A stretch of 64,000 nt of DNA, taken from NCBI GenBank assembly GCA_019057865.1, contig JAHLWP010000014.1, positions 1 through 64,000 of the forward strand. The letters are read 5' to 3'. The first letter of the stretch is position 1; every line of letters begins with the position of its first letter. Made by a program: the position numbers and the translations under genes. Positions 20,920 to 49,221 of the stretch are shown piece by piece. The notes beneath the pieces were generated by a model that worked only from the letters and a program-made list of their open reading frames with translations, ran no database searches and had not been told where the DNA came from. The DNA is from Promethearchaeota archaeon (lineage in GTDB: Archaea; Asgardarchaeota; Lokiarchaeia; Sigyniarchaeales; SOKP01).

Positions 20920-21105
20920 TTATTTAGAAGATTTTTGATACTTGTTCCAAAGATAAGCTAGTTTTTTCTCATCTTCAGATTCTATTTTCCCAGGATTATC
21001 ATCCGAGTTATCTAGTATCATCATGACTGGAGTTTTATCAGAATCCCAATCTTTATAGTAATCAAGTATCATATAGGGATCTTTTTTGCTTAACTTATTT
21101 CCCAA
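20920..21105 (-). CDS. 61-aa microprotein A
   Basis: GGAGGTGA upstream of TTG; similar to 42076-42249. Confidence 0.75.
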   Translation of the reverse strand: MGNKLSKKDPYMILDYYKDWDSDKTPVMMILDNSDDNPGKIESEDEKKLAYLWNKYQKSSK

Positions 21106-21132
21106 CTATTTTTCACCTCCTTTTTTTGATTT

Positions 21133-21341
21133 AGCTTTCACTAGGAGAATGAAATCAGGATCTGACCTTTTTCGAATAAATTTTACATAGTTATTATATG
21201 TTAAGAGAATAAACCAATAAAAAATATAAGAAACAGGTCAAGAGATTTGATTTATTCTCTCTTAATAATACTACGGATGAATACAGCTATTACACCTAAA
21301 TGTAATCTACACCAATATGTCGTAGTATTATTTGAAAAGCT
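21133..21341 (-). ncRNA. Predicted multibranch structured 5' leader
   Basis: Stems 21133-21140/21333-21341, 21145-21173/21230-21259, and perfect 12-bp 21264-21275/21321-21332. Confidence 0.65.
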
Positions 21342-21364
21342 CATTATTAGAAAAGTAAAAAAAA

Positions 21365-21385
21365 TCCTTTATAAACTTTACCCAT
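21365..21385 (-). promoter_or_regulatory. Putative BRE/TATA promoter
   Basis: Minus strand gggtaaag-tttataaa, about 25 nt before the closing stem. Confidence 0.5.
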
Positions 21386-21673
21386 TTATTTCCCATTTTT
21401 CTCAAATATCGTGAATTATACAAAAAAGTAGTAATGATTTCAAAATTTGTCATTACTTTTCAATGATTTATGTTATCTTAATTATTAATTCTAAAAAAAT
21501 GGCAGCAGAAAACATCTTTAATGAGATGAATGTATTACAAAAGAAATATCTCCCGAAATTTATATAAAATTCATCTTTTCATAATATTTTTTTTAATGAA
21601 GAAAATTTTATGATACATTTTTTAATTAATATTTCCTATATACTCAAGATAATATTTTAAATTATCTTGAGAT

Positions 21674-24600
21674 ATGAAATCTGTAAAACCAGAAAATTCT
21701 GAAGAAAAGATTAAAAAAATAACAGAATTCCTTACAAAATTATTTAGATTTTGCTTTTTCCTAATAATTGCACCTTTCGCTATTTCTTTAGCTGGATTTG
21801 GGATCTTGGTACAATTTCCTTGGGCTTCATATATAGCGTTTACTATTTCTGTAATAATTTTTACGTTTGCTTTCCTCTTTTTTTATAAAAGTTTTGACAA
21901 ATATCGAAATAACCCTTTCTTTTATAATAAATCCAATAACCCAATTGCCAGAGTACATGTCATATTTTTAATATCTATATTATCTTATGTTGTAACCCCA
22001 ATTTTCGATCTCATTACGCCCAAACATTGGTCGTTTATATATCTTCCGTTGATTTCTTTTTCTCTTTTATATAATATTGTGTATTATTACTACTACTTTC
22101 AGCCTATCGATTTTTTCAATATAGGCGAAGGAGAGTTTAAGCATGCTATTAGTTTAAAATTGATGTTAAAACAACCCTATAATTTTGTTATTGTTATTAA
22201 TTATCTTATTCAAATATTATATCTATCTTTTATAACTTCTTCTGACTTTGCTTGGCTTTTTGGGCTTATTAATAATCTAATTTTTTATTTGATTACTTTT
22301 GCGTCTGTAAGTAAGCAACAGAATGAAATCAAAAAATCTATCGAAGATAACAAACCATTCTTAAAAAATCTAACAAAATTTAAGCGTAAATTTGTTACAT
22401 CTTTAGCTAGCTTTATGTTTGTTCTTTTGATTCAAATGCCTTTTATATCATTGGTATTTTTAATTCAGAGAGGTCAATTTTCAGTTAATATTCTTATAGA
22501 TGATGCGTTTCTAAGTTTTTTATTCCTCTTACTCTTTCTTAAAACTGTACTTTATATCTACTTACATTATGAATTTTTATTTGAGTTATACAAAAACCCC
22601 GAAACATCAAGGAATTCTGAAGAAGAAAATAAAGATACAAAAGTCAAATATCAAAAGTTAAGTTCGATATTAACAGGAATTTTAATATTATTAATAACAT
22701 TATACACTTTTCTTATAGAGTTACCTTATATTACGCTAATTATTCTTCCATTTTTTTTTATTTTTACTCATTATGAGCATAAATCAAATTATTCCTTTAG
22801 AAAATATGATAATTTTATAATTTTATTATACAGTCTTGCATTTTTAGCTTCTATCTCTTTTGGAATCTTACCTTCTATTTCAGATCTTATTAATTTCAAT
22901 ATTCAATTAATTGTTTTTTTCATTTCCTTTTATTTCATGTTAGAATTATTTAGAAGGGTTAATTATTTTAAAAAAGGAAATATCCTAATAACTCAAAATA
23001 TTCTTGCAATAATCGCATTTTTCTTGATCATTCTTAACTATGTTTATATTTCCACAGATCCTTATCTGACGCTTGTTTCTAACGTTTTTATAATTCTAAT
23101 TCTTTTCTTTGTTGTTTTATTACTTTCATTTTACAGATTATATGCAATTTTCTTCAAAGAAAAATACTCAAAAACATTCAAAATATGCGTACTAATGAAT
23201 TTATTTCTGATAGAATTAATTATCTTTATTCTCATCAATTTTAATACCTACTTTACAGTGAGTTTTAACCTTTTCATTAAGCTTTTAGTCATTTCTACTA
23301 TTTTATTTCCGTTAATATTCATGCTTTTTGTGTTATTGAATTATTTAATTGGCATGATTAACTTAAAGACGCTTTTAGCATCAATTTATTATTCTTTTTG
23401 GTCATTAATAGTAATTATTTTTCTATCTATACTCATTACATTCTTCCCAAACTATATTATGATGATTTTCAATTTCCTGCTTTTATTAATTCTTATTAAT
23501 TTCAGTTTGAAATTTGGGGTAAAAATAGCAAAAGTAAAAGAAGAAACCTATAAAAAGGCTATGAGTGTTTTATCTTATCCAATATTTTTGTTACTTTTAG
23601 CTTTAATTTTCTCTATATTTTATGCTTCCTTTCAATTTCTACTTTTAATCGACAACATAATTCTTTCATCATTTCTTACCTTAATTATTACATGTGTCTT
23701 AATAAATTGTTTTTCTAAAATAGAATTCTTATTTACAAGAGCTATATCCATCAATGTTAATTTGTTAACCCTATTACTCAGCTCAATCTATTTATTTTAC
23801 TATTTAAGGTTGTTATCTTTGATTTTAGGAACTTTTTATCTATTTACATTTCCCGTAATAATTACGTGCTCATTTTTTTATCTTCCAATAATGTATTCAT
23901 TAAAGAAAAATATAGCGCCAAAATTAACAAAAACAGCATTAGTATATAATGGCATATTTTTATCTGTATTTCTGGCCCTCATTCCAACATTCATTTATTT
24001 AGAATTAATTAATCTAGGATATAGAGTTAATATTATCACAGTATTTAATGTTATCAATTTTACTCTTTATATTCTCTTTGGAATTCTACTCATTTACCGC
24101 TTTAAAATAAGAGAAAATCTTAAGAGAATTATTTTAATATCTGCACTTTTAATTGCTTTTCTTTTAACTGGAACAACTGTATTTTTTTACTTTTTTATAA
24201 TATTTTATGAGACTTCATTTAGATTTTTATTACCATTAATGATAGCATCCTCTTACTTCTTCATCCCTACTACTTACTCTTATAGAAAAAGACTTATGAA
24301 GGAATCTATAGGGAAGAAAATCTTAACTTATAACATCTTACTATTATCTGGGTTGATATTATGTATTCCAACATTCATCTATCTAGAATTAATTAATCTA
24401 GGATTACCTGTTGATATTATCACAGTTATTACTGATATCAATTTTACTCTTTATACTCTCTTTGGAATTTTAATCATTATAAACTTTAAAGTAAGAGAAA
24501 ATCTTAAAATATTTATTTTAAAATTGGAAGTTTTAATTGCCACCCTTTTAACTGGAACAACAGTATTCTTTTACTTTTTTATAATTTTCTATGAGACTTC

Positions 24601-40289: not shown

Positions 40290-41975
40290 ATGAGTGAAAA
40301 TCCGTATGCCGCAAAACCTTGGCTAAAACATTATGATGAGGGTGTTCCCACAGAAATCGATTTTCCTGAAATGAATATTTATGAGTTTCTCGATAATTCC
40401 ACAGCTGATTTTGGTGGACGAACAGCAATTTGGTTCTTGAAAAATAAAATATCGTATAAAAAGTTCAAAGATATTGCAGATAGATTAGCTACTGCTCTTG
40501 TAGATTTAGGTCTTAAGAAAGGTGATATTGTGGCTATATTGCTACCTAATTTCCCTCAATTCATGTTCGCTTTCTATGGTATCTTAAAAGCAGGAGGAAT
40601 TGTGTCAGCATGCAGTGTTCTCCATACAGAACACGAATTAGCATATCAATTGAACGATTCTGGAGCAGAAATAATTATTGCATGGGATGCCCAAATAGAA
40701 AAAATTAACAACGTAAAGAATAGAACGCGTTTAAGGCATATAATCATAACTAATGTATTTGATTATGGACCTAGTGCTCCCACTAGTCCACCTGAGATAG
40801 CAGGAACTATACAATTTTTAAACTTAATTCAAAAAACAAAACCAAATCCTCCTAAATTTGAAATTAATGCAAAAGAAGATATTGCTGTACTCCAATATAC
40901 TGGAGGTACTACTGGCTTACCTAAAGGAGCAATGTTAACTCATTATAATCTTGTATCTAATGCTCTAACTTTGGCTATTTGGATATCAAATGTAGCGCAG
41001 AGAGGAAAAGATACAGCACTTACAACTTTACCACTATTTCATATTTATGGGATGACGGTTTGTATGAATACATACATATATTATGGAACTACTATTGCTT
41101 TACACCCAGATCCTCGAGATCAAAAAGGATTATTTGAGGTAATCAAAGCAACTCAACCTAGCTTCTTTCCAGGTGTACCAACGATGTATATACGTCTCTT
41201 AGAAAGAGATGACCTTGAAGATTATGCTAAGGATCTTAGATCAATCAAAGTTTGCAATACTGGTGCTGCTCCTATGCCTCCAGAAGTTCTTAAGGAGTTT
41301 GAGGAAAGAACTGGAGCTACAATAATTGAAGGATATGGATTGACAGAGGCTTCCCCAGTGACTCATGCTAATCCATTTGCAGGAACAAGAAAAATAGGTT
41401 CTGTAGGTCTTGCATTGCCAAATACTGAAACTAAAATCGTTGATATTGATGATTACACTAAGATTGTCCCTATTGGTGAAACAGGTGAGATAATGATTAA
41501 AGGTCCTCAAATTATGAAAGGATATTGGAATAAACCAGAAGAAACAGCTAATCAACTGAAAGAGGGATGGCTTTTGACAGGTGATATTGGAAAACTAGAT
41601 GAGGATGGCTATCTATACATTGTTGATAGGAAAAAAGATATGATAAATATTAGTGGATTCAAAGTATACCCAAGAGAAGTTGAAGATGTTCTATTTGAAC
41701 ATGAAGCTGTTGAAAATGCATCGATTATAGGAATTCCTGATCCAGAACTACCAGGTAGTGAACATGTAAAAGCATATATAGTATTAAAGGATGGATATAA
41801 AGAAACTGAAGAGATACAAAATGAAATCAAAGAATTCCTTAGAAAGAATGTAGCTCCCTACAAGGTTCCGAAATATATAGAATTCAGAAAAGAACTTCCA
41901 GAAACATTAGTGGGTAAAGTTCTTAGAAAGGATTTAAAAGAGATAGAAGCAAAAAGACGCGGAGAAGAAGTATAA
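40290..41975 (+). CDS. fadD: Long-chain acyl-CoA synthetase
   Basis: YTGGTTGLPKG, EGYGLTE, TGDIG, VDRKKDMI. Confidence 0.88.
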   Translation: MSENPYAAKPWLKHYDEGVPTEIDFPEMNIYEFLDNSTADFGGRTAIWFLKNKISYKKFKDIADRLATALVDLGLKKGDIVAILLPNFPQFMFAFYGILKAGGIVSACSVLHTEHELAYQLNDSGAEIIIAWDAQIEKINNVKNRTRLRHIIITNVFDYGPSAPTSPPEIAGTIQFLNLIQKTKPNPPKFEINAKEDIAVLQYTGGTTGLPKGAMLTHYNLVSNALTLAIWISNVAQRGKDTALTTLPLFHIYGMTVCMNTYIYYGTTIALHPDPRDQKGLFEVIKATQPSFFPGVPTMYIRLLERDDLEDYAKDLRSIKVCNTGAAPMPPEVLKEFEERTGATIIEGYGLTEASPVTHANPFAGTRKIGSVGLALPNTETKIVDIDDYTKIVPIGETGEIMIKGPQIMKGYWNKPEETANQLKEGWLLTGDIGKLDEDGYLYIVDRKKDMINISGFKVYPREVEDVLFEHEAVENASIIGIPDPELPGSEHVKAYIVLKDGYKETEEIQNEIKEFLRKNVAPYKVPKYIEFRKELPETLVGKVLRKDLKEIEAKRRGEEV

Positions 41976-42075
41976 ACTAAAATTTTAAATATAATTATTT
42001 TTCTTAAACATTTTTCAGTATTTACAAAGTGAAATAAAAATAATTATTACTGAAAACAAAAATACCCAAAATTTC

Positions 42076-42249
42076 TTAAGTTAAATTACTTTTTTTCCAT
42101 TTTGTCATAAAATCTTTAAAGCTTTCACCAGAAATACCGAGAGAATTAACTGCTTTATCTTCATTATCAAGACTATTCTTTGATTTTTTTTTGAAAGTTA
42201 ATTCCCAATCATAATATGAAAGTGAATTTGATGAAGCTGCTTTTGACAT
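42076..42249 (-). CDS. 57-aa microprotein B
   Basis: MSKAASSNSLSYYDWELTFKKKSKNSLDNEDKAVNSLGISGESFKDFMTKWKKSNLT; resembles 20920-21105. Confidence 0.6.
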   Translation of the reverse strand: MSKAASSNSLSYYDWELTFKKKSKNSLDNEDKAVNSLGISGESFKDFMTKWKKSNLT

Positions 42250-42489
42250 GATCTTATAATTTCTCTTATACCTAATAAATTAATACAGAGTATTGGTTTT
42301 TTATTAACCAAAAAAGTAATACAAATTTGTATATTTAGATTTAAGTTTTTTGTCAAATTTTCGTACCAAAAGAACGAATTAGACAATTTAGTATGCTTAT
42401 TTTTCCATGAAGTGTTCTAAATAGTCCCGACAAAAAAGAAGTTTAAATTGAAATGAATAAATTTTATGAACAAAACGATAATCATATAA

Positions 42490-44901
42490 TTATTGAGCAA
42501 AAGATATTAAATCTTTTTGAGTGGATTTCTTGTTATAATCAGATGTCAATAGTTCTTCAAGCTCGGGGAACTCGAATGGGAAGATGTTCTCGAAAGCTCT
42601 TTTTAACAATTCAACATATTTTTTTCGATCATATTCGTGCCTTGTATCAGCATATAGATCTGAGAGGATGACTTTTTTTTCAGGAAAGTTAGGATCTGCA
42701 TCGGCGTTAAGAATAATATATCTCACGTTTTTTCCAGCAGATGCTACAAAGCCAGATCGTTCTAATTGTCTTGCGGCAACTGCTTGGTAGGAATTTACCT
42801 TATATTGGGAAGGTTTCCGAGATATTTTTTGCCGTATTGTAAGCTCATCTCTAGATACCCGACCTGAATATACTCTGTCTACATATTCATAGAGCTTTTT
42901 CTTTGCTTTTGGGATTCTTTCCATGAACTCCTCAACAGTCTCAGCACCTTGAAATACATCAATAAATGCATATTGAGCATCCTTTACGATTTTTGGAATA
43001 TCTCTACGTCTAACCTCAATACCTCTCACCTTTACTTCACCATCACTTTTTATCCCCCAATAATGGCTAAGCGCGGGAACATCTCGCTCTGCTCGAGAAG
43101 GAAGAAAGACAATGTTATTAAATCTCCCATCCCAACTCATAGGAATTCCTATCTTTTCTGTTATTTCTTCAGCAATCTTTTGAGTAAGTTTATCGAATTC
43201 CTCCGGTGATCTTCCTTTCGTATCTTGAAGCCACATTGAATCAACAATTCCATGAACGACTTTGCAACCATGTTCTTTGGCAATCTCGGCAGAGCGCATA
43301 AGGAATTCTCGAGCAAAGGCGCAGACCGCTTGATGGGCTTCAATTTTACCAAAACGAGCATTCTTGAAGCCTAAGTATCCAAAACTTACTACAAGCACCC
43401 ATTTTAGTGCGATATCTGTAAATTTATATCGAAGGTCATCATGTGTTTTATTGTATTCTTTGTATTCCAACCTTTTTCTTAACGGTAAGCTAATCGACTT
43501 TGAAATAATTCCTTCTCTCTTGGAACAGATGTGAAAGTTCAATCCTGGCACTTTTATACCTGTACCATCGTCTTTACAACATTTGCAATTTAGGGTCTCT
43601 GAAGAAATATTGAAATTTGCCATTAAAGAGGGATACATAGAGGAGAAATCTAATTCTACCACTTGATCAAAAATTCCAATAAGAGGCTCAAAAATGTGTC
43701 CACCTCTGTCGCTCACGATAAGTTCCATACCTGTCTTAAAATCTTCAGGACTCTTTTTGAAGGGAGGAATTAAATGATCAAGCTTATACGCATTGTAAAA
43801 TTGTATTGACTGAAGTGCCCCCCCAATTGTCACTCGACACAATCTTTGAAGTGGCACCCGTGAAACGCGAGCAACTTCAATCACTCCAGGGATGTTTCCC
43901 TCACTAAAATGTAAACTACCGTATGCAGTTGTATCTAAGTGAAATCGACCAGTAAAATACACTTGAGTTTTTGACCGGCGCATTATTATTCCGTAAGACA
44001 TATAGTGGTCTGATCCACCGGAAAGTTCGAAAATGCAATTTTTTAATGGCGTTTTTGTGCGGGAAAAGTAAAGATGTCTTGATACACGATTGATGGATGC
44101 TCGTGCTGCTAAATAGGGAAATACAAATTCGTCTCCTCCGTGAGTAAGAATAATGTCTGGATCCAACCTCTCGATTACTTTGCTAATTATTTTTAACTTA
44201 TCTGCTTCATCCGCTCTATTAATGAGAAATTTTCTTTTTTTCTGCCCATCTGCCCTTGGGATGTTACTGTTTTCATCCTTTTCGACAATGCTGATTTCTG
44301 CATATTCAAGAGGGTCATTATAATAAGGTCTTAACCCTTTTTGTTGGACTTTAATATCTAACCATACAGCCTTTAGAGGGGGTAAATCGTAAAATAGCTC
44401 CTCGTTATCATCTTTTAACACTAATGCCACTAACTTTATCGTATTCCTGTTGCTGTTTTTGTCCTTTACAACTTTTGTCCTGAAATTACAAAGAGACATT
44501 GGAAATAAATCGTTCACGTAAAAATACATCTGTGAGATTGGAAGATCCGTATTATATAATATAAAAAGACCTATTTCGTTAATTTCTTGAATTGTTTTTT
44601 TGAATACCGAGGGTTTAGCAACTGAAACTCCTAAGATTTTTCTCTTCTTATGATCTTCCAGCCTGACATATTTTTCACACACTCTCACACTTTTTACATT
44701 TGGGTGGCCCTCTAGGATTTTTTTAAATCTTTTTAAGTCAGAGCCTGTTTTTTTCCTTGGGACCGCGAAAAACTCAGGATGAAACTCATCAAGTATTTCT
44801 AGAATTTTTTGCTCATTCACGGTTTTAACCCAAAGAATAACTCCCTCTCCATATGTAGAAACATCTAAAAGCCATCCATCAAATTGATCTTGCTGATCCA
44901 A
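42490..44901 (-). CDS. polB2: Family B DNA polymerase, PolB2-type
   Basis: LDFSSMYPS, KWVLVVSFGYLG, HGIVDS, RGIEVRRRD; exonuclease motifs degenerate. Confidence 0.88.
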   Translation of the reverse strand: MDQQDQFDGWLLDVSTYGEGVILWVKTVNEQKILEILDEFHPEFFAVPRKKTGSDLKRFKKILEGHPNVKSVRVCEKYVRLEDHKKRKILGVSVAKPSVFKKTIQEINEIGLFILYNTDLPISQMYFYVNDLFPMSLCNFRTKVVKDKNSNRNTIKLVALVLKDDNEELFYDLPPLKAVWLDIKVQQKGLRPYYNDPLEYAEISIVEKDENSNIPRADGQKKRKFLINRADEADKLKIISKVIERLDPDIILTHGGDEFVFPYLAARASINRVSRHLYFSRTKTPLKNCIFELSGGSDHYMSYGIIMRRSKTQVYFTGRFHLDTTAYGSLHFSEGNIPGVIEVARVSRVPLQRLCRVTIGGALQSIQFYNAYKLDHLIPPFKKSPEDFKTGMELIVSDRGGHIFEPLIGIFDQVVELDFSSMYPSLMANFNISSETLNCKCCKDDGTGIKVPGLNFHICSKREGIISKSISLPLRKRLEYKEYNKTHDDLRYKFTDIALKWVLVVSFGYLGFKNARFGKIEAHQAVCAFAREFLMRSAEIAKEHGCKVVHGIVDSMWLQDTKGRSPEEFDKLTQKIAEEITEKIGIPMSWDGRFNNIVFLPSRAERDVPALSHYWGIKSDGEVKVRGIEVRRRDIPKIVKDAQYAFIDVFQGAETVEEFMERIPKAKKKLYEYVDRVYSGRVSRDELTIRQKISRKPSQYKVNSYQAVAARQLERSGFVASAGKNVRYIILNADADPNFPEKKVILSDLYADTRHEYDRKKYVELLKRAFENIFPFEFPELEELLTSDYNKKSTQKDLISFAQ

Positions 44902-44917: not shown

Positions 44918-45175
44918 TCACTTTTTTTCTAATTCCTGTACTCTTTTTTCTAAGCTTTCAATCCTTTTCTCTTGTTCAATCGCAAAAGAAATGAAAAGTA
45001 TTTCGGAAAGCATCGGACGAGCACTTAGACTACCAGCATCGGCATGTATTCGTGCAAAATTCATTAATTTGTCAAATATTTTCTGATCTTCTGGTCTAAG
45101 TGCTCTTTTAAAGTCTTTCCAGCTTTCAATCTCATGCTCTAATGCAGGTCTAAAAGAGGGGACTGTTCTACCCAT
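44918..45175 (-). CDS. Small PolB2-associated protein (arCOG07300-like)
   Basis: MGRTVPSFR...W..FKRALR.ED...FD.L; directly upstream of polB2. Confidence 0.85.
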   Translation of the reverse strand: MGRTVPSFRPALEHEIESWKDFKRALRPEDQKIFDKLMNFARIHADAGSLSARPMLSEILFISFAIEQEKRIESLEKRVQELEKK

Positions 45176-45339
45176 AATAAAACAACCATGAGAAGAAATT
45201 CTTTGTAAAATTTAAAAAAAAGTACATTGAAGATTTATCGATTTCTATATATCGTTGACTCAATTTTTAAACCATTAGATAACACTAATTCTTTTAAATT
45301 TAGCTAAATTTTTTTATTTCCCTTAATTAAATAATTATT

Positions 45340-47986: not shown

Positions 47987-48403
47987 ATGACTGAAGAATT
48001 AAAAAAATGGCACGCTCCTTGTGGAATCTATTGTAAAAGATGTCCTGGTATAAAAGCGTTTAACTGTAAAGGATGCCGAGAGCAAAAGGGTCAAATACTT
48101 AAGTTCCCGGTATGTAAAACATATGAATGCGTTACTAGTAAGGGATATGAATTCTGTTATGAGTGTGAGGATTTCCCCTGTGAGATGCTCCAGCCAATTG
48201 TTAATTTTGAAATTTTTGCTCCTCATAACTCTAAAGTGTATAATTCAGTTATGATACAAAAAATTGGATTAGAAGAATGGAATAAAATATGTGAAGAAAA
48301 ATCTACTCTTTATTACCAAGGAAAAAAAATACAATATGGCGGCGATCCCCTTACTCTTGAAAAAAAAGACAGTAATATGTATAAAAAAAAGAAAAAAGAC
48401 TAA
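47987..48403 (+). CDS. Cys-rich DUF3795-like protein
   Basis: APCGIYCKRC, CKGCR, FCYECEDFPC. Confidence 0.8.
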   Translation: MTEELKKWHAPCGIYCKRCPGIKAFNCKGCREQKGQILKFPVCKTYECVTSKGYEFCYECEDFPCEMLQPIVNFEIFAPHNSKVYNSVMIQKIGLEEWNKICEEKSTLYYQGKKIQYGGDPLTLEKKDSNMYKKKKKD

Positions 48404-49221
48404 AACCACACATCTAAAGTCATATTTCTTAAAGGAACTTTCTTCTTTGGTTCACGAGGCTTCCATCTTAATAACCGATTTTCTGGCAAGTATGGATGCT
48501 GAACGAGGGTGTATTCTACAAATCGCTCATCATCTCTTATCAGTACTAGCACCTTCCCAAAATGAGAAAGTATCTTTCCCCCTTTAGGCCTGAAAAGGGA
48601 GTATTCACTTAAAGGTGTAGTTATAATAATTAAGGGATTTGTTTTTGAGAGCATTCTTTTAATTCCGTCTATTGTCCTTAGTAAGTCTTCGAAAGTTTGT
48701 TTTTCATAATTTGGCCATAATTTAGTTATCCCCGAGATTAACACAACTTTAATATTTTCAAGTTTATCAAGTCGATTCTCTAAGATCTCAACCAGTTGAT
48801 CCCAAGTAAAAGCGCGTGAAATCAGTATGTTTTCTAAAACTTTCCTAGGTGATAAATTTTGTGAAACGGCAAACTTACTTATATTATAAGGATTAAATCG
48901 ATTGTTGACATCAACATAAGCAACTTTAATATCATCTCCAAGCCCTCCATTGTTAAATGATTTTTGAGCAATAACAGAGGTTGTTAACAAAATGTTAGAT
49001 GTAATTTTCTTATCTCCATAGAGTAGATAAATTAAATCTCGGTGAAAACCCCCAGAAAGTAATTCATCTAACGTCTTATCTCCACTTGAAACGAGTGGAA
49101 AACGAGTATTCTTTTTGTATACCTTGAATCCTGAATTAAACGTCATCATATTAAGTAACATTTCTTCAAAATAAAACACGAATACACCGACAATTTTTTG
49201 AAAAGTGCCCATTTTATTCAT
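48400..49221 (-). CDS. RadA/RecA-fold protein with degenerate Walker A; start may be 49162
   Basis: SGDKTLDELLSGGF, LYGDKKIT, YVD..NRF.P, LENILISRAFT..Q. Confidence 0.82.
   Translation of the reverse strand: MNKMGTFQKIVGVFVFYFEEMLLNMMTFNSGFKVYKKNTRFPLVSSGDKTLDELLSGGFHRDLIYLLYGDKKITSNILLTTSVIAQKSFNNGGLGDDIKVAYVDVNNRFNPYNISKFAVSQNLSPRKVLENILISRAFTWDQLVEILENRLDKLENIKVVLISGITKLWPNYEKQTFEDLLRTIDGIKRMLSKTNPLIIITTPLSEYSLFRPKGGKILSHFGKVLVLIRDDERFVEYTLVQHPYLPENRLLRWKPREPKKKVPLRNMTLDVWF

Follow-up and report, generated by a model that had tools for sequence, protein, structure and literature searches.

Is the 57-codon frame at 42076-42249, here termed ORF A, a gene, and if so, to which family does its product belong, how is it expressed and with which cellular process is it associated? 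The frame lies in the window, i.e., the whole stretch of 64,000 nucleotides of Promethearchaeota DNA that was analyzed. According to the original prediction, ORF A and a second small frame, ORF B, are members of one new microprotein family, each preceded by a long leader with stems, and together they represent a dispersed RNA-regulated microprotein system. The two frames and the downstream neighbor of ORF A are as follows:

42076..42249, minus strand: ORF A, a 57-codon ATG frame for a 57-aa small protein, MSKA..SYYDWEL..NSLGIS..FKDF..KWKK.N
40290-41975, downstream of ORF A and convergent with it: AMP-binding acyl-CoA synthetase
20920-21105, minus strand: ORF B, a real conserved gene, single-copy, present in 92 of 134 genomes of the family

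The 57-aa minus-strand frame is present in the sequence at the predicted position, and it is indeed convergent with a core gene, which Pfam identified as the acyl-CoA synthetase. Genus-level orthologs of ORF A were found in 23 of 24 genomes by a single-protein search (41-59% identity), and in 48 of the 53 genomes of a larger genus set. A profile of 41 members detected the family in 118 of the 134 genomes, and in 12 of the 13 genera, of one GTDB family of Lokiarchaeia, with one to eight copies per genome that are often arranged in tandem; the same profile search gave 0 of 26 genomes in the other families of the class. Large protein collections contained 268 homologs, which fall into 192 clusters at 50% identity, are all named 'hypothetical protein' and all come from Lokiarchaeia/Promethearchaeota MAGs. 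Pfam, NCBIfam, PDB sequence, Foldseek and ESM Atlas searches yielded no match for ORF A. Judged by these comparisons, ORF A is a real conserved gene under purifying selection, and it founds a previously uncharacterised, lineage-specific small-protein family; to this extent the prediction of a new family was borne out, with conservation extending over the 192 clusters.

The conservation of the frame might in principle stem from a non-coding function, with the frame itself untranslated. This explanation is scarcely credible, because the substitutions are codon-periodic, with a column identity by codon position of 0.80/0.89/0.71 (the third being the most variable) and a median dN/dS of 0.31 among 22 orthologs, and because the frame is open in more than 200 loci, with the start codon kept as ATG or GTG; these properties indicate that ORF A is a coding rather than a non-coding sequence. 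The occurrence of the ORF A domain fused in frame to other proteins also argues against an untranslated frame. The copy in the window has a 5-aa insertion (ASSNS) relative to its orthologs. In addition, approximately 100 nt (41976-42075) separate the stop codon of ORF A from that of the acyl-CoA synthetase here, compared with only 10-30 nt in the orthologous loci.

The likeness between ORF A and ORF B that had been noticed by eye does exist, amounting to approximately 18 identities over 54 columns. BLASTP gave an E-value of 0.18 over 17 residues, and the Smith-Waterman score of 39 was reached by 4.4% of shuffles. Moreover, the two genes resemble each other in size, minus-strand orientation, taxonomic family and chromosomal neighborhood, which is syntenic; sequence-conserved non-coding DNA precedes both, and both products are predicted to have a short N-terminal helix followed by a C-terminal helix. 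ORF A and the close relatives of ORF B also share YY(K)DW near the N-terminus, which is rare, with four occurrences in the 1.06 million residues of the proteome. Nevertheless, the orthologue profiles, whose failure to cross-hit had been named beforehand as grounds for abandoning the idea of one family, did not cross-hit. In hhalign, the match between the two profiles covered 12 columns, in a register other than the proposed one, with a probability of 0.5% and an E-value of 0.12; the cross-wise hmmsearch gave E-values of at least 0.19 even in tiny databases, and in the six-frame search of the genome, neither profile found the other ORF. LDNxD, one of the proposed shared motifs, falls in the variable linkers of both families. 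The other, YY(K)DW, is invariant in ORF A, whereas remote ORF B members read DFYEN or YYKNFD, and thus it is not ancestral in the ORF B family. With profile similarity lacking, ORF A and ORF B are not detectably related at the sequence level, which illustrates that two small proteins may look alike by eye yet be unrelated.

ORF B further differs from ORF A in being single-copy and in having a Shine-Dalgarno sequence, a probable CTG or TTG start and a conserved long-range stem in its leader. Its apparent start is a conserved CTG (16 of 21 orthologs) or TTG, located 6-7 nt after the perfect Shine-Dalgarno sequence GGAGGTGA, and in five of its orthologs the stretch upstream of the conserved motif is devoid of ATG, GTG and TTG codons. 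The 330 nt upstream of ORF B (21106-21435) show a consensus structure that includes the stem, of 14 bp.

Concerning the upstream region of ORF A, a TATA-like box followed by a structured leader had been proposed. The TTTAAA at 42442-42447 and the palindrome ATACAAATTTGTAT at 42319-42332 are both present, and the proposed stems can be drawn in the sequence of the window, but they amount to no more than chance and are without covariation. The 176 nt before the ATG fold at -20.1 kcal/mol, compared with -20.5 +/- 3.4 kcal/mol for shuffles (z 0.12); an equal or better folding energy was obtained for 103 of 200 shuffles. Among 20 orthologs, pairing was seen in no more than 50-54% of cells for the outer stem and in 50-78% for the proposed stems overall, with no excess over column shuffles. 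RNAalifold found 0 pairs in the alignment of the region upstream of ORF A, on either strand and in every sub-block tried, whereas the same approach yielded a 28-pair consensus with the 14-bp long-range stem upstream of ORF B, and thus the method works on such DNA. Rfam searches of the whole window (gathering threshold) and of 42200-42500 and 21050-21700 (E-value threshold) returned nothing credible. The TTTAAA box, proposed as the promoter of a long leader, lacks conservation among the aligned orthologs. A conserved box was found nearer to the gene:

42274-42279, minus strand: TATA-like box TTTATT, with its 3' end 24 nt before the ATG of ORF A

The position of this box is constant in three ORF A paralog subfamilies (41 family members) and in 12 genera, and no Shine-Dalgarno sequence precedes ORF A. 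Across the genome, the frequency of TATA-like hexamers is highest at -32..-30 relative to start codons. As the conserved TTTATT lies at this peak, 24 nt from the ATG, and a Shine-Dalgarno sequence is lacking, ORF A is best read from its sequence as leaderless, with TTTATT as its core promoter. The upstream architectures of ORF A and ORF B therefore differ in kind: ORF B has GGAGGTGA and a structured leader, and ORF A has neither. The view of a single dispersed microprotein family, with each member under a long structured 5' leader RNA, has thus become very improbable, as it is opposed by the absence of profile cross-hits, by the 28 versus 0 consensus pairs and by the proximal TATA box of ORF A; the RNA-regulated system is rejected. 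More generally, what looks like a plausible 'leader with stems' may, in an AT-rich sequence, be no more than a normal promoter region.

The genes upstream of ORF A bear on its possible function. Three of them are considered here:

42490..44901, minus strand: PolB2-type family B DNA polymerase, 803 aa, directly upstream of ORF A, matching Pfam DNA_pol_B
44918..45175, minus strand: ORF X, an 85-aa DUF8156 protein gene that ends 17 nt before the start of PolB2
48400..49149, minus strand: ORF W, a 249-aa Rad51/RadA paralog with a degenerate Walker A (GDKKITS)

In an alignment to the P. abyssi PolB, motif C of the polymerase reads VVHGIVDS, with HxxxD instead of YxDTD, and Exo II reads GGDEFVFPYL, with Asp replaced by Val; Exo I, identified by eye, is probably WLDIKV, with Glu replaced by Lys. 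The HxxxD signature of PolB2 has been described (PMC8764526). From these residues, the PolB2 of the window is likely a proofreading-less translesion-type enzyme. ORF X homologs have a precomputed match to PF26485 (DUF8156); they are 75-85% identical and are located next to PolB2 in seven genera, including one without ORF A. ORF X is more conserved than ORF A and can be regarded as a candidate PolB2 partner. NCBIfam searches with ORF A, ORF B and ORF X yielded no match. Orthologs of ORF W match Pfam Rad51 with E-values of 2e-14 to 9e-17, and the copy in the window is 75% identical to the ortholog in genome G006.

The linkage between ORF A and PolB2 extends across genera. In four of them (g18, g20, g21 and g23), ORF A is located 110-270 nt downstream of PolB2, and in g16 it is divergent from the X-PolB2 operon owing to an inversion. 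Where both genes are on one contig, ORF A is beside PolB2 or within 10.3 kb of it in 70 of 72 genomes, while the acyl-CoA synthetase flank is conserved only within the genus. Genus g12 has kept X-PolB2 without ORF A, indicating that ORF A is not indispensable to PolB2. Four of the five genomes of the genus that lack ORF A also lack PolB2 and the W promoter, although an assembly gap could equally produce this co-absence since the genes adjoin. At L095 and L097 in genus g12, the C-terminal tail of PolB2 is partially repeated (..YDKKKYKELLTRAFENIFPFEL..) approximately 700 nt downstream of PolB2, after a gene for a 218-aa membrane or zinc-ribbon protein. This tail copy is suggestive of an insertion, with duplication of the target, at the site that ORF A occupies in other genera.

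In addition to their linkage, the genes share a promoter motif, which is found at three sites in the locus:

42281..42307, minus strand: ORF A upstream promoter element, TTAATAAAAAACCAATACTCTGTATTA; consensus TTAGAAAAYY-N2-3-ACWCTGTAT
45211..45242, minus strand: X-PolB2 operon promoter, a diverged version of TCAGAAAATT..TGTAT..TTTAAA
49168..49201, minus strand: ORF W promoter, TCAAAAAATTGTCGGTGTAT..TTTTATTTT, with a TATA box 18 nt before the ATG and a TTGTCGG core

The proximal arrangement TTAGAAAAYY..ACWCTGTAT..TTTATTT of the ORF A promoter is conserved across genera, and ORF W, too, is leaderless as far as its sequence indicates. A composite pattern, TYAGAAAAYY-N4-9-YGTAY-N2-8-TTTAWW, was built from the ORF A and X-PolB2 promoters, and whole genomes were scanned with it. 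In a scan of five genomes, eight of the nine hits fell at this locus; they included the W promoter, which had not been used to define the pattern and was found through the motif. Among 54 genomes of the genus, 129 distinct sites were detected, 42 at W, 34 at X-PolB2, 31 at ORF A and 22 elsewhere; these genomes are related, so that conserved linkage and orthologous promoters do not count as independent observations. The three module promoters thus account for 107 of the 129 sites, compared with 18 hits for a reversed control pattern, and, as the pattern was derived from the ORF A and X promoters, this result is independent only with respect to the hits at W and the lack of hits elsewhere. In the A2/A3 paralogs, which are encoded elsewhere in the genomes, the TATA box is adjoined by GAAATTTGTCGG, a variant form of the W promoter. 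The 12-mer GAAAWTTGTCGG gave 12 hits in five genomes, six of them at W or A-paralog promoters; the other six are inside genes or without promoter geometry, which is about the number expected by chance.

In the genome of the window itself, the strict pattern detected one unrelated site only, and it misses the module because all three local promoters deviate from it. At 42281-42307, 45211-45242 and 49168-49201, the G of the AGAAAA core has been lost (TCAAAAAATT, TTAATAAAAAACC and ATCGATAAATC). Two readings of this loss are conceivable: the promoters may have changed in concert with the regulator, or the regulation may be decaying.

Further upstream of ORF A, the DNA is also conserved. The block and the elements within it are as follows:

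42308..42441, minus strand: distal conserved non-coding block, approximately 130 bp, upstream of the promoter element
42424-42437, within the block: TTTTTTGTCGGGAC
42362-42376, within the block: CGTTCTTTTGGTACG
42319-42332, within the block: the palindrome ATACAAATTTGTAT
42310-42315, within the block: T-run

Within the genus, the region 42250-42441 shows a p-distance of 0.14-0.29, compared with 0.54 at synonymous sites of ORF A. The block is unique in the genome (nhmmer), occurs only upstream of A1-type orthologs and is weak or absent in other genera; where ORF A directly follows PolB2, it is missing. Its distribution in the sequences compared indicates that it is largely genus-specific. TTTGTCGG, which is also part of the block, is not enriched genome-wide (57 observed, approximately 60 expected). 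A coding function was rejected owing to stops in most frames and 1-nt indels, and when both strands of the consensus were inspected by eye, neither C nor D boxes were seen. The interval between PolB2 and the block is occupied by a TrmB-like gene, or by other genes spanning 1-10 kb, in most members of the genus (L005:1908-3008 and orthologous loci), while the genome of the window is without the TrmB-like gene and has a compact PolB2/ORF A arrangement. The TrmB-like gene was rejected as a cis-linked regulator, since it is absent from the genome of the window while the block persists.

Could the distal block instead be a functional RNA, which would be compatible with our main explanation? It might be a small RNA that lacks structure and terminates at the T-run (42310-42315); alternatively, a distal TTGTCGG-type promoter might give rise to a second, longer ORF A transcript, of which the block would be the 5' part. 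A tiny frame, ATGGAAAAATAA (42397-42408; MKVxx* among the orthologs), might then be read. The conservation of the block matches that of coding DNA, its first element is the TTGTCGG motif, which adjoins the TATA box of the W promoter and of the A2/A3 promoters, and the T-run follows the palindrome; in addition, 12 of 20 orthologs possess a frame of 3-9 codons that starts with ATG or GTG. However, that mini-frame is without a start codon in the other 8 of the 20, and the peptide is not conserved in the window. There is neither a consensus structure on either strand nor an Rfam match, and the block is missing in those genera where ORF A directly follows PolB2. Furthermore, the palindromes of the block are invariant rather than covarying, which suits protein-binding DNA better than RNA. 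We therefore regard a functional RNA as unlikely.

Taken as a whole, the data favor, with moderate confidence, an interpretation in which ORF A is a new lineage-specific helical small protein, leaderless and co-regulated with X-PolB2 and the RadA paralog in a DNA-damage-tolerance module. ORF A would be transcribed as a leaderless mRNA from the TTTATT 24 nt upstream of its ATG. Its promoter contains the composite element TYAGAAAAYY .. YGTAY .. TATA, which each genome otherwise has almost exclusively at X-PolB2 and W; given this near restriction to three promoters, ORF A is most likely co-expressed with PolB2 and W. We infer from this that ORF A may respond to DNA damage, its expression most likely being turned on in concert with that of a translesion-type polymerase and a recombinase paralog.

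An alternative hypothesis is that ORF A is a real gene but has no role in DNA metabolism. The PolB2 neighborhood would then be inherited synteny, and the motif would be a relic of a local promoter duplication or the site of a general regulator (e.g., of growth phase); indeed, the shared motif could reflect promoter DNA copied within the locus. All of the genomes come from one family, in which synteny is expected, g12 keeps PolB2 without ORF A, and the insertions of 1-10 kb between PolB2 and ORF A are tolerated. The A2/A3 paralogs, moreover, adjoin unrelated genes, encoding a zinc-ribbon protein and a ferredoxin-like protein. Nonetheless, these paralogs still carry the W-type motif although they are located elsewhere, the adjacency of ORF A and PolB2 has survived both the g16 inversion and the loss of the other flank, and the composite motif is nearly restricted to three promoters in each genome. 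Weighing these points, we consider a role of ORF A outside DNA metabolism rather improbable.

PolB2 enzymes were long thought to be inactive. To our knowledge, lesion extension and damage induction have been shown for PolB2 only in Sulfolobus, and we know of nothing reported on how Lokiarchaeia sense or tolerate DNA damage. In addition to a cis-element, the three-promoter motif points to a polymerase and two uncharacterised small proteins as candidates for testing.

In Sulfolobales, dpo2 (PolB2) is DNA-damage-induced via a promoter element at -23..-55 (PMC6061795). The Orc1-2 regulon with its ANTTTC element (PMC6061795) resembles the present module in that a short element just upstream of the TATA box, at -23 to -55 relative to the ATG, is shared by a few repair genes, including PolB2. 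The reverse complement of ANTTTC, GAAANT, is found in the W, X and A2/A3 promoters, although a match of six bases is weak; the A1 promoter reads GAAAAC where the Orc1-2 type would read GAAANT, and the copies in the window deviate further. The lokiarchaeal motif is also longer and differently composed (TYAGAAAAYY..YGTAY) and has the opposite orientation.

With regard to the protein itself, the AF2 model based on the alignment contains two helices, at residues 12-26 and 41-55, with a pLDDT of 74.5; the model is thus moderately confident only and is without a specific match. A Foldseek search of the PDB gave 0 hits, a wide VIA-align search gave generic helices only (Z < 4), and the ESM Atlas search gave nothing usable. 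The invariant residues are S11, W15, F44 and W51, while the linker between the helices is variable. ORF A is accordingly predicted to be a protein of approximately 52-57 residues with two helices bearing conserved aromatics (SYYDW on the first and F..F...W on the second), a variable and often basic linker, and no cysteines.

The role of such a small protein would probably be to bind PolB2, or else another module member, as a partner or adaptor. The more specific proposal, that family A is a small subunit or adaptor of Asgard PolB2 and forms, with X and W, a compact DNA-damage regulon with its own promoter element, is tentative and, in our estimate, doubtful; if true, it would provide a first sketch of a lokiarchaeal damage-response circuit. 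[quoted passage not shown] Similarly, two small genes (X, 85 aa; A, 57 aa) flank the family B polymerase here. On the other hand, no sequence likeness between ORF A and PBP1 or PBP2 was seen, and the cysteine-free ORF A has two predicted helices. PBP1 and PBP2 accompany PolB1, whereas the polymerase here is PolB2, with a putative association that gene linkage and the promoter motif suggest. Because sequence and predicted fold differ, membership of the ORF A module in the Sulfolobales families is not claimed.

A SinI-like anti-repressor was also considered. The helical hook of SinI/SinR (PF08671) is like ORF A in its size of approximately 57 aa, its two helices and a C-terminal pattern of the type G-[IV]-S-x3-F-[KR]-x-F..W, and weak, below-threshold Pfam hits to PF08671 were obtained for 4 of 41 ORF A members (best E 0.0093). 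The ORF A protein of the window had no hit to PF08671 in Pfam, a PDB sequence search with a cutoff of E 10 revealed neither SinR nor SinI chains, and Foldseek likewise gave no hit; this candidate was rejected, as no match exceeded the gathering score.

Several database proteins contain the ORF A domain in other contexts. In P0261, it precedes an RNase_T/DEDD-type exonuclease, a rare fusion from a single cluster; among 135 genomes of the family, this fusion was absent and only stand-alone exonucleases were found. In P0247, a whole flavodoxin domain is inserted in the linker of the ORF A domain, and P0260 contains five tandem copies of its C-terminal half.
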